From NCBI GenBank assembly GCA_002707335.2, contig PAMN02000027.1, positions 1 through 32,000 on the forward strand: a stretch of DNA of 32,000 nt, in the 5' to 3' direction. The position numbers and the translations under genes are program-made. Numbering within the stretch: the first letter of the stretch is position 1; every line of letters begins with the position of its first letter. Positions 536 through 14,935 of this stretch are shown here, piece by piece. The notes below the pieces were generated by a model. It saw nothing but the letters and a program-made list of their open reading frames with translations. It was not told the origin of the DNA and ran no database searches. This stretch comes from Methanobacteriota archaeon. Lineage in GTDB: Archaea; Thermoplasmatota; Poseidoniia; Poseidoniales; Poseidoniaceae.

Positions 536-1819
536 ATGATGAGTTTGAAAATAAAATCTATGCTAATGATGCTTTTATTGAGTTGCGCTGCTATGGCTGG
601 TTGCCTAGGCACTGACGACGAAGAAGAAAAGGATACAGAAGACCCTGCTGACGAAAAACCTGCTTGGTTAGACGCTTCAGATGCAGGCTATACCTATGCA
701 TCTGACGTTGACAACCACCGTTCTTTGATGAACGATCTGTGTGAAATCAAGGCTGCTGCAAGTTCTGACGGTGGATATGATTTTGCAGGAGCAAAGGCCA
801 TTTACACTGACGGTAAGAACGCTCCGAAAGACGATGGTTCCTACAGAACACTTGCAGGATTCGCTGCTGCAACTGGTAAGAACCACAATTATGATTCCTA
901 CTACGATATGAATGGATCCATTGGCGCACACATTATGGCTGCAATGGACGGTACTGGCGATTTCGATAACACCTCCGACACAGTAAGATACCAAGGTATC
1001 GCTAAACTAACAGTTAACATGGGAATGGTCGGATACACACTTCACGAACTAAACGCTGCAATCATTAAGGCAGAAGCCGGTGATTGGGGCACTGACAAGG
1101 CTCAACACGCATGGGACGAAGGATGGGCTTTCTTCCACGGACCTGATGAACACTATGGCTGTTCACCAGCTAAGGTAATGGAGAAGAGAGCAGCTGACTT
1201 CGGAACAGCAGACGCTGACGGAGTTGCAGCAACATTTGCAGCAACAGAGGCTGCTATGAATGCAGGATTGACTGCTCTACAAAATGAGAACATGCAAGGC
1301 GTAGTAGACGCTCGTGATGAAGTTCTAAAGAACCTAGTAATCGTTTACTCACAGGCTGTTCTAAAGTACACATCCAAGATGGACAGCAACACTACTGCTG
1401 AAAAGTACCAGGCTGAAGGATACGCCTTCTGGAAGGCTATCGAAGCATACGCTGCTCCACACATGCACGACGGTTGCTACAACATGGCAGTCGGACACAA
1501 GGTCATGATGATGGGAGAAATCGACGCATCTGCTTGTGACGCTTTCATCTGGACTAACGGTAACCAGGATCCTAATGGCACAAACGACACATGTTACAAC
1601 ACTGTAAACCACATGGTTTCCACTGATGCTACTGACGAAGCAGGCTGTGATGGATACAAATCCATGTACTACATGGACAATTATGCTGCTACAATGATGA
1701 ACAACGTACTAGATCTGACTGATGCTTCTCAACTAGGAACATCCTACGATGTTACAGCTTGGCTACAACCAGTTTGGGACCATTACGGAATCACCAGTTC
1801 AGATATCGGTTCAATGTGA
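536..1819 (+). CDS. Secreted acidic lipoprotein of unknown function, Met/His/Cys-rich (candidate metal-binding protein)
   Basis: 427-aa ORF with a signal peptide and lipobox (LLLSCAAMAGC followed by LGTDDEEEKD). Contains Met/His/Cys clusters (APHMHDGCYNMAVGHKVMMMGEIDASACD, SMYYMDNYAATMMNN) and a WDEGWAFFHG motif. It is the first gene behind the double operator. Confidence 0.8.
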   Translation: MMSLKIKSMLMMLLLSCAAMAGCLGTDDEEEKDTEDPADEKPAWLDASDAGYTYASDVDNHRSLMNDLCEIKAAASSDGGYDFAGAKAIYTDGKNAPKDDGSYRTLAGFAAATGKNHNYDSYYDMNGSIGAHIMAAMDGTGDFDNTSDTVRYQGIAKLTVNMGMVGYTLHELNAAIIKAEAGDWGTDKAQHAWDEGWAFFHGPDEHYGCSPAKVMEKRAADFGTADADGVAATFAATEAAMNAGLTALQNENMQGVVDARDEVLKNLVIVYSQAVLKYTSKMDSNTTAEKYQAEGYAFWKAIEAYAAPHMHDGCYNMAVGHKVMMMGEIDASACDAFIWTNGNQDPNGTNDTCYNTVNHMVSTDATDEAGCDGYKSMYYMDNYAATMMNNVLDLTDASQLGTSYDVTAWLQPVWDHYGITSSDIGSM

Positions 1820-1905: not shown

Positions 1906-4239
1906 ATGAGATTGATTTGCCCACTTATTTGTGCGCTTTTCATGTTCACGATTATCCCTTTAGAGATAGCAATGGCAGATTCTAATGATGAAGGCAATTT
2001 GTTTAGTTTATACGGCAATTTGTACGATGAGGAAGGTAACCCTGCTGCAGAAACCTCAATGAAACTTGTTCCGAGAGGATCGATATGGGCAGATGGGGGT
2101 ACTTACTCAATAGAAAATATATCTGAAGGTGAATACACTGTAAGAGCCTATTTCATGAACAATGGGCATACGGTAGTATACCGAACAATATACATTGATT
2201 CAGATACAGAACTTGACTGGCAAGTAGGTAAAAACTGGGCCACTGGAAAGTTATACGACAATGCCGAACAATTAATCGAAAACCCAGATTTGACCAATGT
2301 CAAGTTAATAGAGACAAATGAATCTGAGACTACAGATAACGGGAGATTCTCCTTGGGCCCATATGAAATTGGTAATTACTACACATTAAGAGCTTATTAT
2401 GGAGATATTGATCATTCTACACAGTTTGTCCACTTCAAAATGCAGTCAGGTTCTGCGACTGAATTTGACATCAATGATTTTGAATTCTATCATGGTAAAA
2501 ATAGTCGATATGGTTTCGTAAAAGATTCAGCAGGTAATTCAATGCCAGGAGTGACCGTAAGCAACGGAGATCAAACTGTTACTACTAACTCAGATGGATT
2601 TTACCTGCTACAAAACCTAGAGATAGGTATTGAAAACAATTTTACATTTATGCATGGAGAAAACGAGGTTGCTCCGCCAATAACGGAAATAATCACATCT
2701 GGAGAAGGATGGATGAACAACACCGGCACGATTGAAATTAATCTACCAGGTAATGCATCATTTACTACACAGGTCCAGGTTATTGAAAAGAATAAACCAT
2801 TTTTGATAGAATGGAATGGCGGTGCCTATACAGAATCATATTCACTTTACAGGAATGGTATAATTACATACTCAGGTACGAAGAGTGAGTACTCATTCAC
2901 ACCTCAACAAACTGGAAATTTTGAATTTACATTAGTAGCTGAAAATAATAATGGCACAACTGAGACTTTCAAGACCCTAGTTCTGATGGTGCTCCCTGAA
3001 CAATCAAGTTCAGATTTGTGGGCAGTAGGTATGTATTGGAATTATACTGTTGATTACTTTCCTTCCAGTGATAATCAAAATATTACGATGACTGCGATTG
3101 GTAAAGAAACTGTTACGGACGCATTTGGCTTCGAAAGAGATTCATTTGTGATTAGAATGTCAGGATCACATTATGAGGATGAAGAAAAATCCTACAGATG
3201 GGTAGATACTCAAAATCTACTGTATCTGCGCACATATTGGGTCGATGACCCAGACTCATCGTCATATTTCCAAGAAGGCACTCTAGGATGGGATTTCACT
3301 GATGCTAATGGAAACAAAACTGATTTATTTTCATTAGAAAATGGGTCAAATCTCCATTTTAATAGAACCAATATCATAGGTGTTCCTGGTCATCCCAATG
3401 GATACGATGACACACAAAATTCCATCCAAGTAACTGACAATGTGGTTATCACTACTGCTGCAGGAACATTTTCTACAACATATATTTGTATTATCGATAA
3501 TAATGACGGAGTAAAATCATGGGAATTATGGTATAATGACACTGTAAGAAACTGGGTAAAGAAAATCGATCGGCTCCCAGGTTCTCATTCGGATTCCGTT
3601 GAAATGGAACTGACTTCATTTGTCGTTCCAGTTACACCTCAATTTATTACTGAAGATTCTAATATATCTACAAAGAATCATCTTATCGAATGGGCTTCCT
3701 TCCAGGGTGCCTCTTCATATGAACTTCTTCACAATGGAGAAGTCGTATATTCGGGTTCTAACACGTCTTTCGAAATCAGAAATAGCGAAGACGGAAGGTT
3801 TGTCTATCAAATCAATGCAATAATATCTCAAAATTACAAAATTACAGGAGACATTTTGACTCTAGATGTATTTTACATTCTACTTCCGCCTGTCTTGGAA
3901 ACGAATGTAGATACAATTACTGAAGGAGAGAAATTGAAGTTATCATGGAATCCTGTGGAGGATTCAATTTGGTATTCAGTAATTGTACAAAATGACGATA
4001 ATTCACCTGTGGAAGTGTACAACGGCTCTAAAACAGAATTTACTACATCTGACCTAGATGTTGGATTAAATAGAATTAGGATTAGTGCTGGATCTTCTGA
4101 TGGAAAAGTTTCTGAATTATCCGATTCGATATTCATCAAGGTAGAACCTGAAGAGGATTCTGGTTTACCATCAATTGGTATTTTGGCATCTATATTCTGC
4201 GTTTTAGCAGCGGCTTTTGTTCTAAAAAGAAATGATTGA
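1906..4239 (+). CDS. Anchored surface protein with carboxypeptidase-regulatory-like and FN3-like repeats and a C-terminal sorting signal
   Basis: 777-aa ORF with an N-terminal signal peptide. Three CarboxypepD_reg-like units (e.g. YGFVKDSAGNSMPGVTVSNGDQTVTTNSDGFYLLQNLEIG). Three FN3-like units (IEWNGGAYTESYSLYRNG..YSG, IEWASFQGASSYELLHNGEVVYSG, LSWNPVEDSIWYSVIV). C-terminus: EPEEDSGLPSIGILASIFCVLAAAFVLKRND. Confidence 0.8.
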   Translation: MRLICPLICALFMFTIIPLEIAMADSNDEGNLFSLYGNLYDEEGNPAAETSMKLVPRGSIWADGGTYSIENISEGEYTVRAYFMNNGHTVVYRTIYIDSDTELDWQVGKNWATGKLYDNAEQLIENPDLTNVKLIETNESETTDNGRFSLGPYEIGNYYTLRAYYGDIDHSTQFVHFKMQSGSATEFDINDFEFYHGKNSRYGFVKDSAGNSMPGVTVSNGDQTVTTNSDGFYLLQNLEIGIENNFTFMHGENEVAPPITEIITSGEGWMNNTGTIEINLPGNASFTTQVQVIEKNKPFLIEWNGGAYTESYSLYRNGIITYSGTKSEYSFTPQQTGNFEFTLVAENNNGTTETFKTLVLMVLPEQSSSDLWAVGMYWNYTVDYFPSSDNQNITMTAIGKETVTDAFGFERDSFVIRMSGSHYEDEEKSYRWVDTQNLLYLRTYWVDDPDSSSYFQEGTLGWDFTDANGNKTDLFSLENGSNLHFNRTNIIGVPGHPNGYDDTQNSIQVTDNVVITTAAGTFSTTYICIIDNNDGVKSWELWYNDTVRNWVKKIDRLPGSHSDSVEMELTSFVVPVTPQFITEDSNISTKNHLIEWASFQGASSYELLHNGEVVYSGSNTSFEIRNSEDGRFVYQINAIISQNYKITGDILTLDVFYILLPPVLETNVDTITEGEKLKLSWNPVEDSIWYSVIVQNDDNSPVEVYNGSKTEFTTSDLDVGLNRIRISAGSSDGKVSELSDSIFIKVEPEEDSGLPSIGILASIFCVLAAAFVLKRND

Positions 4240-4261: not shown

Positions 4262-5350
4262 GTGATGCGATACAAGGTTGTCATTTCGATTTTTCAAGCG
4301 ATTATAGTAATTGTGTGTGCAATTGGAATCTACAATTATGCATTAAAACAAAACACTGACGAAACAGGAGAAATAATTATCACAGATTCAAATGGAGTCA
4401 AACACTACTTTGATGAGCCGCCCAGTAGGGTTGCAATAACCAACACTTATGCAGGGACGGTAATGCGCATGCTAGACATAAACGAATCACACATTGTTGG
4501 TGTTTCTGGTGACTTTAGTGATGAAAAATTGTGGCCAGAGCTTTCAAAAAAACCTATGATTCAGCAATCGGCTCACTCAGAAATAGATTTTGAAGCTATA
4601 CTCGATTCAAGAGCCGACATATACATTGTATTTGCAAACAATGGGATGGTAGATACAGGGGGCATTAGAGAAAAATTAGAGCCTGTTGGTGTGAAAGTTG
4701 TTGCTCTTGATTTTTACAAATATGATTCATTGAGATATGAAATAGACGTTTTAGCAACAATGTTTGGAAAGGAAAACCAAAGAGACATTCTATTCAATGA
4801 GTTTGATGAAATTGAGTCGTTAGTAGAATCAAAGTTGGTATCTTTGGAAGATTCAAATCGACCACAAATAGTGATGGAACATCATGCTTCTCTGACTAGA
4901 GATCCTGTGGTTCTAACTGGAACATCTCAGTGGACAGATTTGATACAAAGGGCAGGAGGGATAAATGTGTTCGAGGATTTACCTGGACATACCACTCATG
5001 TTGACATGGAAGCAATTTTGGACAAAAATCCTGACATCTTGATGTTTGACGGAATTACATTTGACATAGGATACAACAGATATGATGATACTGGTACGAC
5101 TTGTGAGACTCACATGCAGCATATTGAGAGTAGATCAGGTTTCGAAGAATTAAACGCAATAAAGAATGATAAGATGTTAGTTCTTTCTGGTGAATTCGCA
5201 GGACCAATGATGATTCACGGACTACCAACATTAGCGAAATATCTTCATCCTGATTTATTCGAAGATGTCGATTCAGAATCATATTTGGATGCCTATTTCA
5301 CAAAATATCACGATGTAGAACGAATTGGCAAATTTGTTTGTACTACATAG
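4262..5350 (+). CDS. ABC transporter substrate-binding protein, Peripla_BP_2 class (Fe-siderophore/haem/cobalamin type), N-terminally membrane anchored
   Basis: 362-aa ORF. GGTGA Shine-Dalgarno-like element just upstream, GTG at 4262 and ATG at 4265. N-terminal TM. RVAITNTYAGTVMRMLD...VGVSG...IDFEAILDSRADIYIV follows the FhuD/BtuF/FecB family pattern. It sits directly upstream of FecCD permease and ATPase genes. Confidence 0.8.
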   Translation: MMRYKVVISIFQAIIVIVCAIGIYNYALKQNTDETGEIIITDSNGVKHYFDEPPSRVAITNTYAGTVMRMLDINESHIVGVSGDFSDEKLWPELSKKPMIQQSAHSEIDFEAILDSRADIYIVFANNGMVDTGGIREKLEPVGVKVVALDFYKYDSLRYEIDVLATMFGKENQRDILFNEFDEIESLVESKLVSLEDSNRPQIVMEHHASLTRDPVVLTGTSQWTDLIQRAGGINVFEDLPGHTTHVDMEAILDKNPDILMFDGITFDIGYNRYDDTGTTCETHMQHIESRSGFEELNAIKNDKMLVLSGEFAGPMMIHGLPTLAKYLHPDLFEDVDSESYLDAYFTKYHDVERIGKFVCTT

Positions 5351-6517
5351 GTGGTTGATCAAATGGATTCAATCTCCCTGCAACACGTTGAGAAAGGAAA
5401 ATATCAACTTTTAATAATTTTAGGACTTGCAGTTTTTACTTTGTTATCGGCTGTTTTCGCATTGGGTCTGGGTTCATCATCTAATCTTGACATGGTTACT
5501 AGTTGGAAAATTGTAATTTCTGATACAAAGAAATTTTTTCTCAATATTGATACCGTAGCTGATAATTTGTGGTACAATTTGACCGCTTGTATATCATCAT
5601 CTTCTTGTGAAGACCGGTCTCTTTTGCATGGAATAGAACGTGAAGGCACGAATATCCAAAATGCGATAATTTGGGACTGGAGGTTTCCAAGGATTCTGAC
5701 TGCAATAGTAGGAGGCATTGCCCTGGCTGTAGCTGGAGCATTGATGCAAGGATGTTTGGGCAACCCATTAGTTTCACCGTTAACACTGGGAGTTGCTTCA
5801 GGTGCAGCTCTTGGCGCTGCGTTTGCAATCGTTCTTGGTTTCACAATATTGTCTATTCCTGAACTCGCAATTGTTGCTAATGCATTCTTTTTCTCTCTGG
5901 TTGTTGTTACTATTATCATTCAGTTAGGTAAAATCCGTTCAATTAGCGCTGAATCATATATTCTTGTTGGTATTGCGATTACATTCATTTGCGGAGCTAT
6001 TGTGTCAACAATGCAATATTTTGCTACAGATGCTCAGTTATCCCAACTCGCACATTGGTCATTTGGAAGCCTATCTAGGCCTAGCGGTGGAAATGTAATA
6101 TTGATGGGTCTAATTCTGGCATCATTACTTCCAACCGCACTTAAATGGTCTTGGGACCTTAACACACTCTCAATGGGAGGTGATGAATTTGCTATATCCA
6201 CAGGAGTAAATCCAAGTAAAATCCGTAAAAATATTCTCATTGTTTCGGCTCTTATGACATCTATTGTGATTGCTTTCACAGGTTTGATTGGTTTCGTTGG
6301 ATTAGCAGCACCCCACATGAGTAGACTTATTGTGGGTAATGATTTTAGAAAATTAATTCCATGTTCGGGATTATTCGGTGCTTTTTTGATGATTTTTGCG
6401 GATACATTGGGTAGAACTCTTTTTGCTCCAATTGTAATTCCTGTGGGTGTTATGCTTTCGATAATAGGGGGTCCTTTTTTCATGTATTTATTGCTCAGGC
6501 GAGGTGGTCATCATTAA
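5351..6517 (+). CDS. FecCD/BtuC-family iron-chelate ABC permease
   Basis: 388-aa ORF. PRILTAIVGGIALAVAGALMQGCLGNPLVSPLTLGVASGAALGAA is the classic FecCD signature, and the protein is multi-TM. The true start may be the ATG at 5363, which has GGTGG 8 nt upstream. Confidence 0.9.
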   Translation: MVDQMDSISLQHVEKGKYQLLIILGLAVFTLLSAVFALGLGSSSNLDMVTSWKIVISDTKKFFLNIDTVADNLWYNLTACISSSSCEDRSLLHGIEREGTNIQNAIIWDWRFPRILTAIVGGIALAVAGALMQGCLGNPLVSPLTLGVASGAALGAAFAIVLGFTILSIPELAIVANAFFFSLVVVTIIIQLGKIRSISAESYILVGIAITFICGAIVSTMQYFATDAQLSQLAHWSFGSLSRPSGGNVILMGLILASLLPTALKWSWDLNTLSMGGDEFAISTGVNPSKIRKNILIVSALMTSIVIAFTGLIGFVGLAAPHMSRLIVGNDFRKLIPCSGLFGAFLMIFADTLGRTLFAPIVIPVGVMLSIIGGPFFMYLLLRRGGHH

Positions 6518-7325
6518 CAAAATCTTGGATGTGACAAACCTCAACTTTTCATGGGGGAGTAATGAAGTTTTGAAAGACATTAGTTTCTCTATGAAATCCA
6601 ATGAGGTTGTTGCGATATTGGGTATTAATGGTGCTGGAAAATCTACCCTAATCAAATGCCTAAATAGAATACTATCGCCAAAATCTGGAGATATACATAT
6701 TCGCCCTCATTGGAGTAATTTAAAAGAAACTAATCTAATCAATATCTCATCACTCGATCTTGTCGAGATATCAAAAACGATGTCATATGTACCACAAAAT
6801 GTTGCAACAAGTTTCCCCATGGATGTATTCGACGTAGTACTTCTTGGTCGCAAGCCACACCTAAGTTGGAGAATCAGTGATGAAGATAGAGACAAAGTTA
6901 GCGAAACTTTGAGGTATCTAAATCTAGAAGACTTTGCTTTTCGAAAGTTTAATCAGATATCAGGAGGAGAAAGACAAAGAGTAATTATTGCTAAGGCAAT
7001 TGCCCAAGATCCTAATTTGTTTTTATTTGATGAGCCAACAAGTGATTTAGATCTTAAAAATCAAATACAGATTATGAAATGTATAAGAAAAATAATCAAA
7101 GATAAAAACAATTCAAAATCTGCCTTAATTGCCATACATGACATAAATATAGCAGCAAAGTATTCAGATAAGATTCTCCTATTGAATAATGGTTCTATTA
7201 TGGCATATGGCCCGCCGTCTCAGGTCCTTACCGAGGAAAATATTGCAGAGGTATTTGGTGTAAAATGTTCCATTTCCTCAGTAGATAAGCATTATATTCG
7301 CGTTGATGTAGACGATGAAATCTAA
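6504..7325 (+). CDS. ABC transporter ATP-binding protein (FepC/BtuD-like)
   Basis: Walker A GINGAGKST, signature ISGGERQRV, Walker B LFLFDEPTSDLD. Overlaps the permease gene by 14 nt. Confidence 0.9.
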   Translation: MVIINKILDVTNLNFSWGSNEVLKDISFSMKSNEVVAILGINGAGKSTLIKCLNRILSPKSGDIHIRPHWSNLKETNLINISSLDLVEISKTMSYVPQNVATSFPMDVFDVVLLGRKPHLSWRISDEDRDKVSETLRYLNLEDFAFRKFNQISGGERQRVIIAKAIAQDPNLFLFDEPTSDLDLKNQIQIMKCIRKIIKDKNNSKSALIAIHDINIAAKYSDKILLLNNGSIMAYGPPSQVLTEENIAEVFGVKCSISSVDKHYIRVDVDDEI

Positions 7326-7345
7326 AAATAAATTAAAGTGATAAT

Positions 7346-8167
7346 ATGACAAAGAAAACGAGTGACTTATCAAGACATGGCGTACCTAAAGGAAAGAGAA
7401 GAGTACAACAAGAACTTCTTTACGACCCTGATATTCCAACGCCAACTCATGCAGAATATTCTATGACAATAGCTCACAAAAAGAATACTGCAACATTATG
7501 TACAATTTCGATAAACGAGGGAAACCATCCATATGGTTCGTTTGTTACATATGCAATGTATGAAGGAAATCCTATTTTCTTGATTAGCAAGTTAGCGGAA
7601 CATACTAAGAATCTCCGAGCAAATTCTAAATCATCATTATTGATTGCTGAAGGAGGCGATGAAAACCCACTTGCTTTAGGCCGCATAACCCTGGTAGGAA
7701 ACTGTACAAAACTTTCCAAAGAGGATAACCCAGAAGTAAAATCAATATTCTTGGAAGAGCATCCAAGCGCACGTTTTTATGTTGATTTCGAAGATTTTGA
7801 CTTTTATTGCTTAAATGTTGAAACTATTAGATACATAGGCGGTTTCGGTAGAATGTCTTGGGTAGACTCTGACAATTGGTTTAAATCTGAACCTGATCCA
7901 TTGGAGCCATATTCAAAAGATATTATCGAACATATGAACGATGATCATCGTGATGCAATGGTAATTCTCTGTCAGAAGATGAGTAAAGCCACCGATACGA
8001 CAGATGCAGTGATGGTGGCAATAGATCGTTATGGATTTGAAATGTCTGCGGTAACTGAAGATGGAGAACGTCCGATTCGTTTGGCATTTGATAACCAAGC
8101 CAGCAATTCAGAAGAGGCAAGAGTTGAGATAATAACCTTGGTCAAAAGAGCAAGAGCCTCCGAATGA
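7346..8167 (+). CDS. HugZ/COG0748-like haem-iron utilisation protein (PNPOx-like split barrel + DUF2470)
   Basis: 273-aa ORF. Split-barrel pattern: ATLCTISINEGNHPYGSFVTYAMYEGNPIFLISKLAEHTKNLRANSKSSLLI...RITLVG. C-terminal DUF2470-like segment: IIEHMNDDHRDAMVILCQ. It lies immediately after the FecBCD-type transporter. Confidence 0.7.
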   Translation: MTKKTSDLSRHGVPKGKRRVQQELLYDPDIPTPTHAEYSMTIAHKKNTATLCTISINEGNHPYGSFVTYAMYEGNPIFLISKLAEHTKNLRANSKSSLLIAEGGDENPLALGRITLVGNCTKLSKEDNPEVKSIFLEEHPSARFYVDFEDFDFYCLNVETIRYIGGFGRMSWVDSDNWFKSEPDPLEPYSKDIIEHMNDDHRDAMVILCQKMSKATDTTDAVMVAIDRYGFEMSAVTEDGERPIRLAFDNQASNSEEARVEIITLVKRARASE

Positions 8168-8199: not shown

Positions 8200-8922
8200 G
8201 TGGGATTGTTGGGGGGACTTAATTTGTCAAGCAGCGAATTGATTCTCTCAGTTGAAAATCTAACAGTCGGTTACAATGAAGAGTTGATTTCGAAGATCAA
8301 CTTAGAAATAAATACGGGAGATGTAATTGCTGTTGTCGGACCTTCTGGTATAGGAAAAACAACGCTACTGAGGACTATTGCGGGATTGGTGAAACCAATT
8401 TCAGGAGACATTTTTTGTAAGGCTCCTAAAAGGGGAGGAATCGGTTACATCCCTCAAAAGTTAGGCCTAGTACGCCATACTAGTGTCTATCATAATGTGG
8501 ATTTGGGTGCTAGATCAGGCTCAAGATTTTTTTCTGAGCCAAAAACCTGGTTCAAAAGAAGAAGTGAAAGAGTAACGACAGCAGTCGAAAGAATGGGACT
8601 TTCAGATAAAATGAATGAGCCAGTAAGGCGTTTATCTGGTGGCCAGCAAAGAAGAGTTGCGACAGCGAGAACACTGGCTCAAAGACCAAAATTAATTCTT
8701 GCTGATGAGTTTTTAAGCGAACTGGATGAAGATAATATTTCAATTGTTCTAGATGCTGTAAAAGAATATATGGCTGCTAGCGAATCTGCAATGATTATTG
8801 TTGAACATAACATTCAGAGAGCAACCGAAATTTCTACTCGTCTACTTCAGATTAAAAATGGCGAATTAGTAGAGTACAATCCTTCAGAAATGAAATTTGA
8901 TCTAGATGGTGGTTTAATATGA
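8200..8922 (+). CDS. phnC: PhnC-like ABC transporter ATP-binding protein
   Basis: Walker A GPSGIGKTT, signature LSGGQQRRVATARTL. Atypical Walker B, ILADEFLSELD, with F where P is usual. The PhnC-like insertion between the Q-loop and the signature is present. The GTG start is uncertain. Confidence 0.75.
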   Translation: MGLLGGLNLSSSELILSVENLTVGYNEELISKINLEINTGDVIAVVGPSGIGKTTLLRTIAGLVKPISGDIFCKAPKRGGIGYIPQKLGLVRHTSVYHNVDLGARSGSRFFSEPKTWFKRRSERVTTAVERMGLSDKMNEPVRRLSGGQQRRVATARTLAQRPKLILADEFLSELDEDNISIVLDAVKEYMAASESAMIIVEHNIQRATEISTRLLQIKNGELVEYNPSEMKFDLDGGLI

Positions 8923-8931
8923 GGTGTTACA

Positions 8932-9837
8932 ATGAATAGAGCACTCAAAAAAATCATCTTCACAACGGTTACTCTTTCTGTGCTGTGCTATATCTTTCTT
9001 AATGATTTATTGCAAGGCGATTGGAGTGTTCTCTCTGCAAGTTGGGATAACCTAGAAACATTTTGGAATGAGTCTCTTTGGCCTCCAGAATGGAGTATGT
9101 TAGAAGCCAGGAAATACCCAGAGTGTGGATCAAGCATTGGGTTTTTCTGTTCCAAAGCCTACATTGGAATGCTTGAAACACTAAAAATGGCATTTGTTGC
9201 AACAATAATTGGGTTTACCATAGCAATATTTCTGTCTCCGTTTGCAGCAAAAAACCTCACATCTGCTTGGGTTTACATCCCAATGAGAATAATTCTAGCA
9301 GCAACTAGAAGTCTTCCAAGCATTATATGGGCTATAATCTTCGTAGTAATTGTAGGCCTAGGTCCTTTAGCTGGAGTACTAGCAATGACATTTTACACAG
9401 TAGGGTATCTAGGTAAATTGCAGTATGAAGAAATGGAAGGTGTTCAAAATAGCCCTCTCGAGGCTGCGAGGGCAATGGGGTTATCTCATCCAGAAATCGT
9501 AGCTAACGTTGTCATACCAGAATCAAGCAATAATTTACTTAGTCAACTGCTATTTATGTTTGAATACAATGTTAGACACGGTTCAATCCTTGGTTTAGTT
9601 GGAGCGGGAGGCATAGGATTTTATTTGCAATTCTACTTGAACTTCTTGATGTATAAACACGTTATGGCTTTCATCGTTGTTATTCTGGTGGTTGTAATAA
9701 TCATAGATTTGATGTCGATGTACATACGCTCATTCGTTACAGAAGATGGTGATGTAAAACGACCATCTTGGTCAACAATATTCTTATCTCCAAATCAAGC
9801 AAAGAAATACCATCATGGTAAATCGGAAGAAGAATGA
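8932..9837 (+). CDS. phnE: PhnE-like ABC transporter permease
   Basis: 301-aa multi-TM ORF. EAARAMGLSHPEIVANVVIPES...RHGSILGLVGAGGIGFYL matches the PhnE signature, including GAGGIG. GAGGTG Shine-Dalgarno-like element upstream. Confidence 0.8.
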   Translation: MNRALKKIIFTTVTLSVLCYIFLNDLLQGDWSVLSASWDNLETFWNESLWPPEWSMLEARKYPECGSSIGFFCSKAYIGMLETLKMAFVATIIGFTIAIFLSPFAAKNLTSAWVYIPMRIILAATRSLPSIIWAIIFVVIVGLGPLAGVLAMTFYTVGYLGKLQYEEMEGVQNSPLEAARAMGLSHPEIVANVVIPESSNNLLSQLLFMFEYNVRHGSILGLVGAGGIGFYLQFYLNFLMYKHVMAFIVVILVVVIIIDLMSMYIRSFVTEDGDVKRPSWSTIFLSPNQAKKYHHGKSEEE

Positions 9838-11048
9838 ATTTGGTTCAATTGATAAATTGTTCCAGCCCAACTGAATATCAGTAATTCATCATTTGTTCCT
9901 TTACCAAATCCTACTATCATGGTTCCAACATTGCCTACCTCTGATGTCGACCAATTGCCATCGATGTTTTTGATTGTCCACAATTGTCCACTGCAGAAAT
10001 CGCCATACAAGTAGCCATCTCGTAAAGGATTTGGCCCCCAATCCATCCAGAAACCCCCGATGATTGAGCAATGCCCTTCATGGTTATACTGTGCAACAGG
10101 ATCGGTAAATTTTGGATCAGGAGTAGACCTATTATCGTAACAACCTCCATTTCTATCAAGGTCATGGAATCCTTCCCTTTCAGACCAGCCAAAATTTGAA
10201 CTTTGCATTACCGGGATTACATTAACTTCCTCATAACATAACTGACCAACATCTGCTATCCAAAGATTACCTGTGGGATCTACATCGATTCTCCAAGGAT
10301 TTCTAAGACCATAGTGTAGTGTTTGGCTCAGATTTTGTGATTCTTCAACGGGCACTATACTTTCATTTTCATAATGAATCAATTGTATAGTACCAAGAGG
10401 CGAGGATGAATTTTGTCCGTGCTCGTGTGGGTCGAAGCTTCCCCCTCCATCTCCAAGACTCCATAAATACTGATTATTGCCTATGGACAATATATTTCCT
10501 CCATTGTGATTTCTATTCGATTTATTTACAGTTATTAGTACCTCTAATGTGTCGAGTTGAATCTTTTCATCTATCACTTTTGCATGTGCTAAAACTACAT
10601 TAGAATCCTCTGCGCTCTTACACGTATTGTTTTCGTTGTATACCAACAAAACCCTTCCTGTGTTTGCATAGTCTTCATCAAAATCCATCCCAAGTAGACC
10701 CTGTTCGTGGTGACATCTTGAAACGATACCTGACAGGTCACCAACAACATCTGACTGTACAGGAAGTTGTTGGCCTTCAGGCAGTGACCACTTCGTAATG
10801 ACTCCGTCCAAGTTTGCTATCCAAATTGAATCACTCAATGGGTCTTCTAATGTAATGATAGGAGTTGCATTCATGCTAGCGTAATATTCACAAACTAGAC
10901 CGGTTTCATTGGAAATATTACAATCGATTTCAACTTGCTCAGGCCAAATAAATCTTTTCTTTTCTTCCTCTTTTTCGTCTCCGAAGCATCCGGAAAGGAC
11001 GCTAGATAGCAAGAAAATAGCAATAAGATATGTACGAACTTTTTTCAT
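9813..11048 (-). CDS. PQQ-dependent sugar dehydrogenase-like (GSDH family) beta-propeller lipoprotein
   Basis: Contains NHNGGNILSIGNNQYLWSLGDGGGS, GLRNPWRIDVDPTGNLWIADVGQLCYEEVNVI and NFGWSEREG, which are the GSDH (PF07995-type) motifs. Signal and lipobox: LLSSVLSGC. I place the start at MKKVRTYL (11048), 1 nt after the upstream stop, rather than at the ORF-track start 11099. Confidence 0.8.
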   Translation of the reverse strand: MKKVRTYLIAIFLLSSVLSGCFGDEKEEEKKRFIWPEQVEIDCNISNETGLVCEYYASMNATPIITLEDPLSDSIWIANLDGVITKWSLPEGQQLPVQSDVVGDLSGIVSRCHHEQGLLGMDFDEDYANTGRVLLVYNENNTCKSAEDSNVVLAHAKVIDEKIQLDTLEVLITVNKSNRNHNGGNILSIGNNQYLWSLGDGGGSFDPHEHGQNSSSPLGTIQLIHYENESIVPVEESQNLSQTLHYGLRNPWRIDVDPTGNLWIADVGQLCYEEVNVIPVMQSSNFGWSEREGFHDLDRNGGCYDNRSTPDPKFTDPVAQYNHEGHCSIIGGFWMDWGPNPLRDGYLYGDFCSGQLWTIKNIDGNWSTSEVGNVGTMIVGFGKGTNDELLIFSWAGTIYQLNQIHSSSDLP

Positions 11049-11049
11049 T

Positions 11050-12129
11050 TCAATCGTATTTATCATTAAAGTAAGCGGTGATTCCAGGTACGTCCTCAAT
11101 CAGACTACCGTAGTTACCGAGGTGATCTTGCGTGTTAATGATAGTAATTCCAGGAGTACTCATTACATCCTGTAAAATTTCTACGTCATCTGAGTTAGAA
11201 CTCATATCAGAGAATGCATTCTGTATTGTTACAACCATTTCATCTGACATATAATCCGGATTGTACATAATTGGATGGCTTGGAGCCTTTCCAAATGTTG
11301 GCAGTGCGTAATAGTCGTTTACGTCCTTAAATTCACCTTCAAAGCACCAATCTTCATTGTCATCAGGGTCTTCATTGCCACAGTAATCTGGAACTGTAGG
11401 GTCCTTAGCGAAGGAAATGAAGTCTTTTCCACCCTCTGCTAAACAGCGAAGGGAACCTATGTACTTGTGATATTTTGTACCGCTATCTGGTATACTAGAA
11501 TCTTCATTGAAATGATTATACACAGTATCTGTCAAGGAACTGATATCATCTGGATCTCCGACAACTTCGATATAACCTCTGTCAATCATCCATCCCATCG
11601 GAAGTAGCATTCCTGAACTTCCTAATGCAGATGTGTGGCACGATGTTTTACCTTCCATCAAAGCGAATGGATCTGTTGAATTATCATCATCTTGGTCGGC
11701 CAATGCCATGTCTGAATCTTTGTGAACCCATGCGATCGCATTGTAGAATGGTCTTCCATCTTGCTTTTGTTCAGCACCTAAAACCTGTAAGTCGTGTGTT
11801 TGCCAACTGAGCCAAGCAGCACCGCCGTCAAGGAACCCAATATCGGCATGTCCAAATCTCAATGCTTCAATAGTTGCACCAGGACTTGATACGGGGTAAA
11901 TTTCAACGTCCATTCCGATAATTTCTGAAAGCCTATCTGCTAGCTCCTGTGGATTTTCTTCGGTATTCTGGTATTCTTCTTTTGTCTCGAATGCGATTGT
12001 TAAACAGTTGTCTGGGTCATCACATTTCTTGAATGTAACCATACTATCGTCTGTAAATAAACAGCCGGGCATTGCAGCAGATATAAAGAAAATCGTCACT
12101 AAAAACGGGAGGGTCAATTTGGCATTCAT
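11050..12129 (-). CDS. Lipoprotein substrate-binding protein of the PhnD/transferrin superfamily with a transferrin-like Fe-ligand set
   Basis: 359-aa ORF with signal and lipobox (FFISAAMPGC). Motifs ADIGFLDGG, PFYNAIAWVHKDS, GKTSCHTSALGSSGMLLPMG, KYIGSLRCLAEGGKDFISFAK and APSHPIM align by eye to the human serotransferrin N-lobe around Asp63, Tyr95, Thr120, Tyr188 and His249. A pipeline would probably label it a phosphate/phosphite/phosphonate ABC substrate-binding protein. Confidence 0.8.
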   Translation of the reverse strand: MNAKLTLPFLVTIFFISAAMPGCLFTDDSMVTFKKCDDPDNCLTIAFETKEEYQNTEENPQELADRLSEIIGMDVEIYPVSSPGATIEALRFGHADIGFLDGGAAWLSWQTHDLQVLGAEQKQDGRPFYNAIAWVHKDSDMALADQDDDNSTDPFALMEGKTSCHTSALGSSGMLLPMGWMIDRGYIEVVGDPDDISSLTDTVYNHFNEDSSIPDSGTKYHKYIGSLRCLAEGGKDFISFAKDPTVPDYCGNEDPDDNEDWCFEGEFKDVNDYYALPTFGKAPSHPIMYNPDYMSDEMVVTIQNAFSDMSSNSDDVEILQDVMSTPGITIINTQDHLGNYGSLIEDVPGITAYFNDKYD

Positions 12130-12139
12130 GGTATCACAA

Positions 12140-12153
12140 TTAGGCTGCCCTAA
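12140..12153 (-). promoter_or_regulatory. Candidate operator site (reads TTAGGGCAGCCTAA on the minus strand), 10 nt upstream of the ATG at 12129
   Basis: Same 14-bp motif as at 475/509, oriented with the downstream (minus-strand) gene. Confidence 0.5.
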
Positions 12154-12162
12154 AATAATCTG

Positions 12163-12173
12163 CTTAATATATT
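12163..12173 (-). promoter_or_regulatory. TATA-like box (AATATATTAAG on the minus strand) for the 12129.. operon
   Basis: AT-rich element bracketed by two operator-like sites, about 35-45 nt upstream of the ATG. Confidence 0.35.
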
Positions 12174-12187
12174 TTAGGCCGCCCTAA
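12174..12187 (-). promoter_or_regulatory. Candidate operator site (reads TTAGGGCGGCCTAA on the minus strand) abutting the TATA-like box
   Basis: Starts exactly 34 bp from the 12140 site, the same spacing as the 475/509 pair. Confidence 0.5.
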
Positions 12188-12231
12188 ATCAAACTGTAAT
12201 TCACTATTGAGTAAAGTATAAGTGGCGTTGT

Positions 12232-12245
12232 TTAGGGCAACCTAA
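12232..12245 (+). promoter_or_regulatory. Candidate operator site (TTAGGGCAACCTAA) upstream of the 892-aa gene
   Basis: Fifth copy of the motif, in plus orientation. It lies between an AAAGTATAA TATA-like element (about 12213-12221) and the start region at 12257/12272. Confidence 0.4.
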
Positions 12246-12256
12246 AAGTACAATCT

Positions 12257-14935
12257 TTGGAGGACTTCATTTTGGATGCAAACAAGTTATCGGTATTCAT
12301 CAGGAAATACCCTTTAGTCATAATCTTGGTTTTGTTAATCCTACCTTCATCGATAACAGTGCCCCATGTATTAATGACTCCAGATAATCCAAGTGGAGAA
12401 ATACCATTTCCTGAAAACATAAGCGTTGATTCAGAAGGTTTTGTTTTAATCGTTTTAGATGGGATTGGTGAAGATTATTTTCTCAACGAAGAATTGATGC
12501 CAGAGATAAATAAATACAGGGAATATTCTGCTACAGTCAAGATTAGAACTGGTCCACTTACCCTTTCAGCCACATGTATTAGCGAAATGATGACAGGAGT
12601 GCCAAACGCCCCCATCAATGGATTACGAAATTTCAATCTAGGCCACCCTGGGATGAATGACCCTTATCTGTTAGCAGCAAATGATCCAAGATACAATGTT
12701 GCTATGGTTGGAAGTTACGTGATGGGGAATATGTATCGAGATTTTTCAAATATTGATTTTGTAAATACTTTCAAAGGACATTCTGACTATTATGAAGGGG
12801 ATAAGGATACATTAGAAGTAGCCGCAGATTGGCTGAATAATTCGGATTACAACGTGATGGCTGTACATTTCTCAGGGCCAGATAAAGTCGGACACACATG
12901 GGGTGCAAACAGCCCGGAGTACAGAACTAAAATAACTGCTGTTGACCTACAAGTTGCAGAACTACTGGATTTAATTCCATCTCAATGGTCTGTAATCATA
13001 ACTGCTGACCACGGAATGACAGATATGGGAACTCATGGTTCCTCAGAAGAGATAACACGAGATGTTGCAGCAATTATTTCCGGCCCAAATATTGTTTCTA
13101 AATCTGAAAGTTCTGGGCACCAGAGAGACCTTTCTGCTATTGTTCCAGTAATATTGGGGTTACCATTTCCAATTCAACTCCATGGCAGAATACCATTGGA
13201 TATTCTGGATTATTCTGATAGTGAGAAGTCTGTGATTGAAAGCTGGAATTGGGACGCAGCATATCAAAGACAACTGTTTTTTGATAAGGAAAATGGAGTT
13301 GACAACCCTGACCTATCACAGGATGAGATAGATTGGGAATTAATCCCATCAGATGGAGATTTTTCGCGTGATAGTGACATTTTAATTTCGATATTTACCT
13401 GGATAATGATCGGTGTTTTTTTGATACTAGCATTGGGATTAAATCGAAATGAAATAAAATCAAATTGGAAAATATTTGCATCCTTCATAGCCATAATTTC
13501 ATTATTCATCCTGAGTCATGCCATGTTGAAATACTCAGCCATGATTCCGAGAGCAATTGGCGGCCTATGTGCTGTATGGCTAGTAGGCTGGTCGATGTCA
13601 AAAACAAATAGAAATGATCTCGAAACTAAAGGGGAAATATCTGATAGAATAGGTCAAATTTTGCACAAACCCTTGATTTGGTTTGGTTTGTCTTGTGTTA
13701 TCGGAATTATATTTTGGTCTCCTCTAATAGCAGTTGTAAGCACACTATTTGCGTATTCGATACTGTATTCATTGTATTGCGCATTTAACAAAAATGAGAA
13801 GCAATCTGACTATCCCACTTTTTGGCCTTGGATCATGGCTCTGTTGTGCATGACCTTTGGTAGCATTAGATTGTGGTACAGTTTAATTCCTTTCATGTTT
13901 ATTTTATCTGGGATGTTAATTGGATTCATAAAAACCAAAAAAACCAGCATTGAAAAAATGCCCATCGTGTGTATGCTGATGTTGACTTCATATGCTGTAT
14001 TTTTCGTTCATAAGAGGATATATGGAGTCAATTACATACTGGAAGCTGTTGAATCGGGTTGGCCAAATTCTATCGAGAATATTTTAATATCTTCAGTATT
14101 GCTTATTCTTAGTGCTATAATTTCTGTCACTGCACATTTTGGAGAGATTAAATCCGAGAAAACCGTCAAATTCTCAATATGGTTATTATTCGGATTACTT
14201 GTTTCATCTATTGAATCCTCATATTTAGATCTCGTATCAATAGCGCTTATTTTCTTCGCATTCGGCGCTGCTGTTTTCATACGAATTAAAGAACCTGAAT
14301 CAAAATTAGTCATTGAATACACGGTTGCAGCATTAGCGATGCAATTACTACTCACTTGGGGGGCATGGTCTACATTTGCAACACTGTTAATTTTAACATG
14401 CTCCGGAAAAATATGGGGCTTAATTAGTGATGAATTTAGACAATCAACTCATAATTACAATGCTAAACCATTTATCGCTGCTGCAGTTTTCCCTTGGGTC
14501 ATATGGGTTTTATGGTGGACTCTTTTAGGACAAGTAAACGGGTTACAAACATGCTTTGAAGGTATTTGTCCCCATCCAAGGGAATTAGATCCTGGTTCGA
14601 TTCTAGTAAGAGGAGGCTATGTTGGATTCAGAGAGGGGCCAAACCTATATTGGATGATATTTATGATTTCAAGTCCAATAATATTGACCTCGTTCATGTT
14701 AATGAAAAATTTACATAAAAACGGATTGGATATGTATCCTTACATATTATTCCAGGCTTTGGTAGTACTAGGTTGTATCAGTGTAATCGGATTTTCTCCA
14801 GAATATCCAAGGCTTGTATTTAGTCTAACTTGGAATATATTTTTCGCAATATTCCAAATTGTCTTAGCAACATCGGTGATTATTATGAATCGTTATTTTC
14901 CTGCAGGTTTAGAAAAACAGAACTATGTTTCGTAA
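12257..14935 (+). CDS. Membrane-embedded alkaline-phosphatase-superfamily enzyme, PigN/PigO-like (phosphoethanolamine-transferase / type I phosphodiesterase architecture)
   Basis: 892-aa ORF with an N-terminal TM. The catalytic domain has VLIVLDGIGEDYF, a GPLTLSATCISEMMTGV nucleophile region, HFSGPDKVGHTWG and ITADHGMTDMGTHG. About 500 aa of multi-pass TM follow. TTG start at 12257; an alternative TTG at 12272 sits behind GGAGG. Confidence 0.7.
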   Translation: MEDFILDANKLSVFIRKYPLVIILVLLILPSSITVPHVLMTPDNPSGEIPFPENISVDSEGFVLIVLDGIGEDYFLNEELMPEINKYREYSATVKIRTGPLTLSATCISEMMTGVPNAPINGLRNFNLGHPGMNDPYLLAANDPRYNVAMVGSYVMGNMYRDFSNIDFVNTFKGHSDYYEGDKDTLEVAADWLNNSDYNVMAVHFSGPDKVGHTWGANSPEYRTKITAVDLQVAELLDLIPSQWSVIITADHGMTDMGTHGSSEEITRDVAAIISGPNIVSKSESSGHQRDLSAIVPVILGLPFPIQLHGRIPLDILDYSDSEKSVIESWNWDAAYQRQLFFDKENGVDNPDLSQDEIDWELIPSDGDFSRDSDILISIFTWIMIGVFLILALGLNRNEIKSNWKIFASFIAIISLFILSHAMLKYSAMIPRAIGGLCAVWLVGWSMSKTNRNDLETKGEISDRIGQILHKPLIWFGLSCVIGIIFWSPLIAVVSTLFAYSILYSLYCAFNKNEKQSDYPTFWPWIMALLCMTFGSIRLWYSLIPFMFILSGMLIGFIKTKKTSIEKMPIVCMLMLTSYAVFFVHKRIYGVNYILEAVESGWPNSIENILISSVLLILSAIISVTAHFGEIKSEKTVKFSIWLLFGLLVSSIESSYLDLVSIALIFFAFGAAVFIRIKEPESKLVIEYTVAALAMQLLLTWGAWSTFATLLILTCSGKIWGLISDEFRQSTHNYNAKPFIAAAVFPWVIWVLWWTLLGQVNGLQTCFEGICPHPRELDPGSILVRGGYVGFREGPNLYWMIFMISSPIILTSFMLMKNLHKNGLDMYPYILFQALVVLGCISVIGFSPEYPRLVFSLTWNIFFAIFQIVLATSVIIMNRYFPAGLEKQNYVS

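Follow-up and report, generated by a model that had tools for sequence, protein, structure and literature searches.

Does a marine archaeon make a protein of the transferrin family, and would such a protein serve the uptake of iron or that of phosphorus? The question is raised by a gene at positions 11050-12129 (reverse strand) of the DNA analysed here, a stretch of 32,000 nucleotides which we call the window and which corresponds to positions 1 to 32,000 of contig PAMN02000027.1 (assembly GCA_002707335.2) of a Poseidoniaceae archaeon of Marine Group II (MGII). MGII archaea belong to the most numerous microbes of the surface ocean and are the most abundant archaea there; to our knowledge, their iron acquisition is essentially undescribed. 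An earlier note on this DNA had described the gene product, hereafter the query, as a lipoprotein resembling one transferrin lobe, and had seen in the gene an evolutionary intermediate still attached to an ATP-binding cassette (ABC) importer of the PhnC/PhnE type. Transferrins reportedly descend from phosphonate-binding PhnD-like periplasmic proteins, a proposal that comes from published work on diatom phytotransferrin.

The overall interpretation of that note is supported by profile scores, phylogeny, the synteny of the ABC partner genes and the iron context. In the reading which we regard as probable, the query is a lipid-anchored surface protein that captures Fe3+ together with an oxyanion at a transferrin-type site and delivers it to PhnE/PhnC, its gene being under repression by a DtxR-family protein in iron-sufficient cells. 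The case for iron is the sum of homology, phylogeny and genomic context; from this sum we infer the binding of Fe3+, as well as the identity of the anion, the docking on PhnE and the identity of the operator-binding protein.

The query protein and its putative iron site

The gene under study is the following:

11050..12129, minus strand: transferrin-family substrate-binding protein (SBP), a lipoprotein with a single lobe, 359 residues, ATG start, matched by PF00405 and PF12974

The open reading frame and the lipobox anchor claimed for it are borne out: the N-terminus MNAKLTLPFLVTIFFISAAMPGC is a signal peptide that closes with a lipobox, whose cysteine is Cys23, and Gly22 and Cys23 are retained in at least 90% of 41 aligned relatives. 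The columns of transferrin were mapped by a HMMER alignment to ovotransferrin with the human numbering counted out, the ligand columns also by hmmalign and MAFFT, and all the pairings with the human transferrin N-lobe that had earlier been made by eye were reproduced:

Asp101: human Asp63, putative iron ligand
Tyr129: human Tyr95, putative iron ligand
Cys164-His165-Thr166: human Cys118-His119-Thr120, Thr166 being a putative anion-site residue
Gly170: human Arg124
Tyr223: human Tyr188, putative iron ligand
Cys229: human Cys194
His285: human His249, putative iron ligand

Twelve residues, namely Asp101, Tyr129, Ser163, Cys164, His165, Thr166, Tyr223, Cys229, Cys250, Trp261, Cys262 and His285, are invariant in the 41-member alignment, which extends down to 48% identity, and the equivalents of the four putative ligands are kept in nearly all the holozoan and animal lobes examined. 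Cys164 and Cys229, which occupy the columns of the transferrin disulfide Cys118-Cys194 and form the predicted counterpart announced by the earlier note, have no equivalent in the PhnD-like proteins examined; Cys250 and Cys262 form a further pair. The putative anion site consists of Thr166 and the turn Gly170-Ser171-Ser172-Gly173. In transferrin, the anion is held by Thr120, a basic residue and the N-terminus of helix 5; in the query, the threonine and the helix N-terminus are present and the basic residue is absent, the arginine being missing because its column holds Gly170, as had been read before.

This turn distinguishes two subclades. The Gly-type subclade, that of the query, accounts for 34 of the 41 aligned proteins, with the turn HT-S-A-L-G-S-S-G and Gly170 in all 34. 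The Lys-type paralogs (seven of the 41, at about 50% identity) read HT-G-W-L-K-S-A-G, with lysine in the Arg124 column followed by a transferrin-like Ser-Ala-Gly; in Teretosporea this column holds Lys as well, and in animals it holds either Lys or Arg. All 34 Gly-type proteins have Lys or Arg beside Tyr223, at position 222 (n = 31) or 224 (n = 3), position 222 being Gly or Ser in the Lys type, and our guess is that this residue may stand in for the charge lost from the Arg124 column. The query gene is on a derived Gly-type branch and the Lys-type paralogs are nearer to transferrin. The relatedness to transferrin and the coupling to PhnCE claimed by the earlier note stand; the query, as a derived Gly-type protein, is not the most transferrin-like member of its family.

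With the vertebrate transferrins (serotransferrin, ovotransferrin, lactoferrin), the query shares the type II periplasmic-binding-protein fold, the Asp/Tyr/Tyr/His columns, Ser-Cys-His-Thr with the anion threonine, the anion site at a helix N-terminus and the counterparts of Cys118-Cys194. The vertebrate proteins are secreted, have two lobes and are taken up by receptor-mediated endocytosis, whereas the query lacks this bilobal architecture, is lipid-anchored and is tied to an ABC importer. It further differs from them by the glycine in the Arg124 column, by the presence of three Cys pairs only (by count), by an acidic insertion of 14 residues (141-154) and by a C-terminal helical extension.

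Transferrin family or phosphonate-binding family

In a phmmer search of 177,635 sequences, the best 60 PDB matches of the query were all transferrins, lactoferrins or melanotransferrin, with E-values down to 2.2e-18; PhnD, PtxB and HtxB were in the searched PDB set and none of them was among these best 60. At the level of sequence comparison, the similarity of the query to transferrins is confirmed to be far beyond chance. PF00405 (Transferrin) matches it in two stretches with 57.6 bits (E 1.6e-15, gathering cut-off 20.3) and PF12974 (Phosphonate-bd) with 82.1 bits (cut-off 27). TIGR01098 is its top NCBIfam match and yet failed (59.4 bits vs a cut-off of 112.05), as did the PhnD equivalog TIGR03431 (36.4 vs 261.1). 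No Pfam or NCBIfam model of the FbpA/FutA type matched it at E up to 1, nor did PF07692 (Fea1). A placement in PF12974 only was thus not seen: both families are above their cut-offs and the curated PhnD models failed. The Pfam scores (PF00405 / PF12974, in bits) describe a gradient along the query and its relatives, the latter designated by our protein handles:

Ciona: 587 / 43
Amoebidium: 216 / 92
P0141: 91 / 97
P0119: 70 / 92
query: 58 / 82
P0157: 55 / 112
P0237: 43 / 137
P0185: 22 / 171
P0252 (control, a strong PF12974 protein): none / 210

With custom profiles built without archaeal sequences, one from eukaryotic transferrin lobes and one from the closest PhnD-like set, the query obtained 178 bits against the former and 148 bits against the latter; a profile of Teretosporea alone gave 185 bits and one of animals alone 73 bits. 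The Lys-type relatives prefer the transferrin profile over the PhnD-like one by 45-110 bits.

The same scores introduce a rival explanation, in which the query would be a functional PhnD/PtxB-type protein delivering phosphate, phosphite or phosphonate to PhnCE, and its transferrin-like residues would hydrogen-bond the oxyanion. That PF12974 is the top Pfam family and TIGR01098 the top NCBIfam model is in its favour, and the wide margin by which the curated PhnD models failed is against it. We consider this explanation quite improbable for reasons that accumulate in the comparison of the pockets, the phylogeny and the regulation.

The residues of E. coli PhnD that bind phosphonate are Tyr47, Tyr93, Ser127, Thr128, Ser129, His157, Glu177 and Asp205, and all eight residue types agree with the E. 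coli sequence. They align with the query as follows:

PhnD Tyr47: query Pro83
PhnD Tyr93: query Tyr129
PhnD Ser127-Thr128-Ser129: query Gly170-Ser171-Ser172
PhnD His157: query Tyr223
PhnD Glu177: query Pro244
PhnD Asp205: query His285

In this alignment, the phosphonate-site residue set of E. coli PhnD is not conserved in the query, and the PhnD phosphonate pocket and the transferrin iron/carbonate pocket are, as far as the alignment tells, made of homologous positions. The earlier note had stated that classical PhnD proteins lack the ligand residues; this is only partly true and has to be corrected, as PhnD Tyr93 stands in the Tyr95 column. The strong PF12974 protein P0252 also has the Tyr, Tyr and His. 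For the phosphorus explanation, it counts that the Gly-Ser-Ser-Gly turn equals that of PhnD-like proteins and that Tyr129, Tyr223 and His285 occupy positions which bind the phosphonate oxygens in the PhnD family. Against it, the PhnD Tyr47 position is lost, and Ser-Cys-His-Thr, Cys164/Cys229 and Cys250/Trp261-Cys262 are absent from PhnD-like proteins. The separators of the transferrin-like clade are the loss of the Tyr47 position, Ser-Cys-His-Thr, the two Cys pairs and an insertion before Tyr223. The query resembles PhnD, PtxB, HtxB and AioX in its fold, its PhnE/PhnC kind of transporter and the homologous pocket positions; it differs from PhnD and PtxB by the transferrin Cys pairs, the Ser-Cys-His-Thr motif, the iron-type context and the absence of linked phosphonate catabolism in the window.

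Asp-Tyr-Tyr-His alone was considered as a mark of an iron site and rejected: the ligand set by itself is no proof of iron binding because PF12974-dominated proteins carry it. These are P0185, P0222, P0223, P0237 and P0255, which also have the threonine and Gly-Ser-Ser-Gly in the anion columns.

Among PhnD-like proteins with Asp-Tyr-Tyr-His and without the transferrin Cys pair, we also noted P0196 of Candidatus Heimdallarchaeota, which is placed next to the transferrin-like clade at a low support of 36%, and P0222/P0295 (locus L042, 8001-9062). In a 3-Mb archaeal genome, a relative of P0222 is encoded in a simple operon of SBP, ATPase and permease; the contigs of P0222 and P0237 themselves are short. 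The ligand of P0196 and of the P0222 group could be a metal too.

Structure prediction

An AlphaFold2 model of the query, computed from a 41-sequence alignment, has a mean predicted local distance difference test score (pLDDT) of 84.6 and a predicted template modelling (TM) score of 0.77. In a Foldseek search of the PDB, apo-PtxB (5o2k) came first (E 9e-14), with melanotransferrin (E 3e-13) and the ovotransferrin N-lobe (E 7e-13, query-normalised TM-score 0.58) close behind and AioX after these; the query-normalised TM-score to transferrin lobes reaches 0.6, at about 20% identity over the structure-based alignments. The fold does not choose between the transferrin and the PhnD/PtxB families because PtxB and the transferrin lobes match about equally, and the first rank of PtxB is a further point for the phosphorus explanation.

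In the model, Asp101 precedes helix 102-112, Tyr129 is at the start of strand 128-136, Thr166 and the turn 170-173 precede helix 171-183, Tyr223 opens helix 222-233, and His285 lies between strands 280-283 and 286-289. Compared with the textbook structure of transferrin, the putative ligands and the anion site are predicted to lie on matching types of elements, the four ligands on two helix N-termini and two hinge strands.

Relation to the eukaryotic transferrins

Behind the archaea rank multi-lobe proteins from unicellular holozoans (Chromosphaera, with five lobes, Creolimax, Amoebidium, Ichthyophonus, Abeoforma and Corallochytrium), followed by animal matches from amphioxus, a crinoid melanotransferrin-like protein and Ciona. 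The transferrins of Teretosporea are the closest eukaryotic relatives, at an identity of about 33%; each of their lobes scores 100-140 bits with the archaeal profile, and they have the ligand set in common with the query. Amoebidium (P0154) shares with the archaeal proteins the Cys-x-Trp-Cys segment (Cys250/Trp261-Cys262), and the Teretosporea lobes share with the archaeal Lys type the Lys-Ser-Ala-Gly turn, where the query has Gly-Ser-Ser-Gly. Unlike the query, they are eukaryotic, secreted proteins of 2-5 tandem lobes and have no ABC partner.

Single lobes were placed in neighbour-joining trees, a distance method only, in two analyses (54 lobes, 278 columns and 100 replicates; 49 lobes, 225 columns and 200 replicates). 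Bootstrap support in analyses 1 and 2 was as follows:

Clade of prokaryotic transferrin-like proteins and eukaryotic lobes, PhnD-like proteins excluded: 84%, 99%
Eukaryote monophyly: 87%, 92%
MGII group: 81%, 83%
Gly-type subclade, inside the MGII group: 100%, 100%
Monophyly of the prokaryotic transferrin-like proteins: not recovered, 20%

The deep branch order has support of 11-32% only; in the best trees P0157 is the first to branch, the remainder forming a clade at 61%. The phylogeny accordingly groups the query family with the transferrin lobes to the exclusion of PhnD-like proteins, which is a further argument against a phosphorus-binding function.

For the origin of transferrin, we consider, as somewhat less likely than not, a course of events in which the protein would not have arisen in eukaryotes and would have been complete as the iron-capture subunit of a PhnCE importer in Thermoplasmatota (or their donors), complete meaning Asp-Tyr-Tyr-His, Ser-Cys-His-Thr, the basic anion residue and the Cys118-Cys194 disulfide; a single horizontal transfer would then have brought it to the holozoan stem, the two-lobe forms arising independently. 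The reverse direction, in which an ancestor of MGII took a transferrin lobe from a holozoan and coupled it anew to a resident PhnCE, so that the archaeal protein would not be an evolutionary intermediate, seems to us unlikely. It draws on the low support of the deep order between prokaryotes and eukaryotes, on the monophyly of prokaryotes still present in 20% of the bootstraps, on the restriction of nearly all the named prokaryotic members to one phylum, Thermoplasmatota, and on the habitat that MGII archaea share with marine eukaryotes. It is opposed by the ancestral PhnD-type context (SBP, PhnC and PhnE) of all the prokaryotic members examined, by a DtxR-type operator layout that is common across 35-40% identity, by the smooth profile gradient from PhnD-like through prokaryotic transferrin-like proteins and Teretosporea to animals, and by the monophyly of eukaryotes (87-92%) set against the non-monophyly of prokaryotes in 80% of the bootstraps. 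Among eukaryotes, transferrin is reported from animals and Teretosporea with essentially no other occurrence (PMC11429873, preprint), a restriction to Holozoa that fits a gain by the holozoan stem. The proposed function is the same whichever the direction of transfer.

The family and its two-lobe forms

The family belongs to Marine Group II and other Thermoplasmatota. Scanning one genome per species yielded 39 related loci (59-92% identity), nearly all from Candidatus Poseidoniales/Poseidoniaceae (Marine Group II) or under generic euryarchaeote labels, with one from a Marine Group III single-cell genome and two contigs from a metagenome-assembled genome labelled Verrucomicrobiales. These two contigs (L025 and L026; NZEQ01000030.1 and NZEQ01000021.1; isolate ARS100) carry an MGII-type cluster of SBP, a protein of the glucose/sorbosone dehydrogenase (GSDH) fold and PhnE/PhnC at 59-62% identity and are probably mis-binned archaeal contigs. 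A protein word-index search returned 285 clusters; all 120 among the matches listed carry both PF00405 and PF12974, under names such as 'hypothetical', 'ABC-type phosphate/phosphonate transport system substrate-binding protein' and 'PhnD/SsuA/transferrin family substrate-binding protein'. The family is compact: when 1.84 billion cluster representatives were scanned exhaustively with HMMER, no more than 243 clusters were matched at E <= 0.001.

MGII and related Thermoplasmatota also have tandem two-lobe lipobox proteins of about 700 residues (P0003, P0009, P0121, P0122, P0123 and P0127), two of whose genes are at 5531-7663 of locus L049 and at 9001-11136 of locus L050. The ligands are complete in both lobes of P0121; they are lost from the second, C-terminal lobe of P0122 and P0123, which reads for example Ala/His/Pro/Glu. 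These decayed lobes point to a quick loss of unneeded ligand residues, as would be expected from the sequences once selection is lifted, and find a parallel in the degenerate lobes of melanotransferrin. The archaeal two-lobe forms are an independent parallel to the bilobal animal transferrins and melanotransferrin.

Transport partners and iron genes

The ABC partners which the earlier note had placed at 8200-9837 are present, in an operon of the plus strand that runs from a Fea1-like gene (536) to PhnE (9837):

536..1819, plus strand: Fea1/ISIP2a-family protein, first gene of the operon (PF07692, 60.2 bits, E 2.5e-16)
1906..4239, plus strand: 777-residue surface protein
4262..5350, plus strand: Peripla_BP_2 binding protein
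5351..6517, plus strand: FecCD permease
6504..7325, plus strand: ABC ATPase
7346..8167, plus strand: HugZ-like haem oxygenase, CREG beta-barrel and DUF2470
8200..8922, plus strand: PhnC-like ABC ATPase (PF00005; best NCBIfam model TIGR02315 phnC, 156 bits, below its cut-off of 266)
8932..9837, plus strand: PhnE-family ABC permease (TIGR01097, 239 bits vs cut-off 216.7)

The PhnC-like ATPase is likely the energiser of the importer and PhnE the docking partner of the SBP. That PhnE is above a curated cut-off can be claimed by the phosphorus explanation. The iron and haem uptake neighbourhood that had been noticed is equally real, with the haem-uptake genes, the HugZ-like gene and the Fea1-like gene. 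The iron context goes further than had been noticed: it includes an operator common to several promoters, DtxR-family genes near relatives, the Fea1-like gene and a flavodoxin gene in L049.

PhnE and PhnC adjoin the SBP and propeller genes, or lie within a few kb of them, in most of the 39 loci, and haem-uptake genes are adjacent in many; the gene order of the haem operon of the window also occurs in L003, L004, L006, L007, L031, L034-L036 and L049. More distant loci are arranged as follows:

L049, all on one strand: Fea1-like, two-lobe transferrin-like, 785-residue protein, Peripla_BP_2, FecCD, ATPase, flavodoxin, HugZ-like, PhnC, PhnE
L050, first unit: Fea1-like, two-lobe transferrin-like, PhnC, PhnE; second unit: Lys-type single-lobe gene and propeller gene
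L045, L046 and L047 (29-35% identity): single-lobe gene, PhnC and PhnE in one operon

In view of these gene orders, transferrin-like SBPs and PhnCE can be regarded as a stable unit across the prokaryotic clade.

Within the Fea1-like operon, some further observations were made. The Fea1-like protein has 775 homologues, of which the named ones are all MGII 'hypothetical' proteins, and no sequence relative among solved structures. The same island therefore holds relatives of both eukaryotic iron-capture families, transferrin and Fea1/ISIP2a. Between the Fea1-like gene and the next one, two arms of 14 bp that form a perfect inverted repeat enclose a 12-nt loop (GGGGTGGCTGGTTA...TAACCAGCCACCCC, at about 1850-1889); this element could be an intra-operon terminator or stabiliser separating the Fea1-like gene from the transporter genes. 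A diatom phytotransferrin gene cluster includes a CREG-like protein, pTF.CREG1 (PMC7972479); the parallel with the HugZ-like gene may be a coincidence of common fold.

Immediately downstream of the SBP gene lies a conserved companion:

9813..11048, minus strand: GSDH/HHIP-fold lipoprotein of 411 residues from the ATG at 11048, lipobox LSGC (PF07995, 67.8 bits)

This gene is co-operonic with the SBP gene, starting 1 nt past its stop codon, and comes after it in each of the 37 loci, out of 39, whose sequence continues beyond the SBP gene. Its product is modelled as a six-bladed beta-propeller (AlphaFold2, pLDDT 86.5) whose top Foldseek matches are HHIP, the soluble glucose dehydrogenase (sGDH) 1qbi, E. 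coli Asd 2g8s and the Pyrobaculum pyrroloquinoline quinone (PQQ) sugar dehydrogenase 3a9g; its sequence matches in the PDB are weak, the fold assignment coming from the model. It keeps the invariant motifs RNHNGG, GDGG and GLRNPW typical of the family. The propeller is probably an auxiliary of the cell surface, with the freeing of iron from organic complexes as one putative role.

The propeller suggests another rival explanation, namely that the substrate would be an organic Fe(III) chelate, or Fe3+ with a bulkier anion (an aldonate or another alpha-hydroxy-carboxylate), that ligand being made or processed by the PQQ-type propeller, or else another hard metal such as Mn. The constant coupling of the two genes, the motifs kept by the propeller and its fold match to the sGDH/Asd enzymes agree with such a role. 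In the Gly type, Ala and Gly replace Trp168 and Lys170 of the Lys type, which would enlarge the anion pocket, and a Lys or Arg is acquired at 281 as well as at 222 or 224. It is established that transferrins can work with synergistic carboxylates of other kinds, one example being oxalate-lactoferrin 1bka, and short DtxR-family proteins can be Mn sensors. However, the pairing with the propeller is not specific to the Gly type, since the Lys-type single-lobe gene of L050 has the same partner, and tyrosinate-rich sites prefer Fe3+ over Mn2+. With the whole of this explanation drawn from sequence, we hold it to be of low probability. A stricter version, in which the propeller is the exclusive partner of the Gly type and supplies its bulky anion, was rejected on account of the L050 pair.

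A shared operator at the promoters

A 16-bp palindrome similar to a DtxR/IdeR box, TTTAGG-N4-CCTAAA, occurs at three promoters, those of the Fea1-like operon, of the SBP operon and of the divergent gene 12257-14935:

474-489 TTTAGGGACACCTAAA and 508-523 TTTCGGGCGACCTAAA: operator palindromes upstream of the Fea1-like gene, flanking a TATA-like box in the same layout as at the SBP promoter
12139..12154 ATTAGGCTGCCCTAAA: proximal operator palindrome, between the TATA box and the Shine-Dalgarno (SD) sequence/ATG of the SBP gene
12165..12174, minus strand AAATATATTA: TATA-like box of the SBP-GSDH promoter, read from the sequence, with an operator on each side
12173..12188 TTTAGGCCGCCCTAAA: distal operator palindrome abutting the SBP TATA box, found upstream of the SBP in most MGII loci
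12231..12246 TTTAGGGCAACCTAAA: third operator copy, 10 nt upstream of gene 12257-14935

The core TAGG-N4-CCTA is present four times in the 32-kb window where 0.24 copies are expected, a number reached in no shuffle, and all four copies are within the promoters of these three units. Upstream of the SBP, the layout operator, TATA box, operator, GTGAT SD-like sequence and ATG is conserved in most MGII loci; the distant operons L045 and L046 have a GC-rich variant, TTTCG-N6-CGAAA. The window itself contains no DtxR-family gene that we could find. In L046 and L047 a DtxR-family gene (PF01325 and/or PF02742) is directly upstream of the operon, with a FeoA-type domain in L047, and in L023, from Marine Group III, a DtxR-family gene (15095-15454) is divergent from a Fea1-like gene with three palindromes between them (15500-15580). 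One of these reads AGGCTAACCTAA and matches the right-hand part of the IdeR/DtxR box.

The shared palindrome and the DtxR-family neighbours place the transferrin-like gene in a metal-responsive regulon with the Fea1-like/haem operon. This regulon is most likely iron-responsive, its regulator being predicted to bind the palindrome, which probably defines an archaeal iron regulon. An operator common with the Fea1-like/haem operon, and relatives that adjoin regulators of the DtxR family and not of phosphate, are left unexplained by the phosphate alternative.

The third unit, apparently under the same operator, is the following:

12257..14935, plus strand: 892-residue membrane protein whose N-terminal domain is of the alkaline-phosphatase superfamily (PF01663, 58 bits; PF01676, 43 bits) and whose long C-terminal part is hydrophobic

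In most of the 39 loci it borders the cluster or lies within it, and its architecture recalls that of the PIG-N-type ethanolamine-phosphate transferases. Two further genes of the window are unrelated to the transferrin-like gene:

19455-20333, plus strand: 292-residue protein carrying a pair of RanBP-type zinc ribbons (PF00641, 60 bits), which are more familiar from eukaryotes
22718-29230, minus strand: 2170-residue FG-GAP-repeat surface protein

The proposed model and its weighing

The model we propose combines the capture, the import and the control of iron. The two-domain lobe would close on Fe3+ held by Asp101, Tyr129, Tyr223 and His285; Thr166 and the turn Ser171-Ser172-Gly173 would hold a synergistic oxyanion where the helix beginning at residue 171 has its N-terminus. 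The loaded SBP would dock on the PhnE permease, and ATP hydrolysis by PhnC would drive the import of iron. A DtxR-family metal-dependent repressor would bind TTTAGG-N4-CCTAAA, flanking the TATA box and covering the transcription start, and would thereby repress the SBP-GSDH operon, the Fea1-like/haem-uptake/PhnCE operon and probably gene 12257-14935.

Such a way of working has precedents. FbpA, FutA and IdiA capture naked Fe3+ with a periplasmic-binding-protein fold, tyrosine-rich ligands and a synergistic anion, for ABC import under iron-responsive repression. They belong to a different sequence family: Neisseria FbpA has the ligands His/Glu/Tyr/Tyr and the permease FbpB, where the query has the putative Asp/Tyr/Tyr/His and PhnE, and the likeness of FbpA to transferrin is one of fold only, whereas the query is a relative at the level of sequence. 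The role proposed for the query can also be likened to that of diatom ISIP2a / Chlamydomonas FEA1 (PF07692), which is induced at low iron and captures Fe3+ on the surface of marine plankton cells; ISIP2a is endocytosed while the query is tied to an ABC importer, and the PF07692 signal is in the neighbour 536-1819 and not in the query.

Several of the observations weigh against this model. PF12974 outscores PF00405 on the query (82 vs 58 bits), Foldseek puts PtxB level with the transferrins, and the full Asp-Tyr-Tyr-His set is also found in PF12974-dominated proteins. The basic anion residue is lost from the query (Gly170), whose Gly-Ser-Ser-Gly turn resembles that of PhnD-like proteins and not the Arg/Lys-Ser/Thr-Ala-Gly of transferrins. 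In the window, the SBP gene and PhnCE are in separate, convergent transcription units, and where a two-lobe paralog exists, it is this paralog that shares the operon with PhnCE. The metal sensed by a DtxR-family regulator can be Mn instead of Fe. Finally, the conserved alkaline-phosphatase-superfamily neighbour could hint at phosphorus.

This neighbour is indeed among the points in favour of the phosphorus explanation, as is picocyanobacterial PhnD1, proposed to be a phosphate transporter in cells without phosphonate catabolism (PMC10284923). Moreover, 'transport of phosphonates' has been listed as a core trait of MGII (PMC6336850). On the other side, no phosphonate-consuming archaea were found in the GORG-Tropics single-cell genomes, in which 80% of the archaeal cells are MGII (bioRxiv 10.1101/2020.11.04.368217), and a Pfam search of the open reading frames of at least 150 residues in the window revealed none of the phosphonate and phosphite catabolism families (C-P lyase, PhnWX, PhnYZ, PtxD). 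The use of phosphonate by the query system is unlikely.

Significance for Marine Group II and for transferrins

Some elements of this picture are already known, namely the automatic tagging of such proteins with PF00405, the word 'transferrin' in the generic NCBI name and the published idea of a descent from PhnD. In the literature searched, we found no description of an archaeal transferrin-family protein, of its ABC partnership, of its two-lobe forms or of its regulon, and PF00405 is missing from the families considered in at least one large survey of marine binding proteins (PMC11485210).

In conclusion, our observations suggest that the PhnCDE-like system of MGII annotated as phosphonate transport is a system of iron uptake. 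The family is a living link, a prokaryotic protein with a predicted transferrin-type site and disulfide that is still coupled to a PhnD-type transporter, and it makes the order of events and the horizontal transfer in the origin of transferrin testable. Its Gly-type, Lys-type and decayed two-lobe variants constitute a natural series on the role of the synergistic-anion residue. A corollary of the archaeal origin outlined above, which we hold to be somewhat less likely than not, is that the 'phosphonate transporter' of MGII would be their main importer of inorganic iron, placed in a DtxR-type regulon that includes a Fea1 homologue. Read as a transferrin-type Fe3+ importer, the system would require the meta-omic counts of both iron and phosphorus transporters to be changed.

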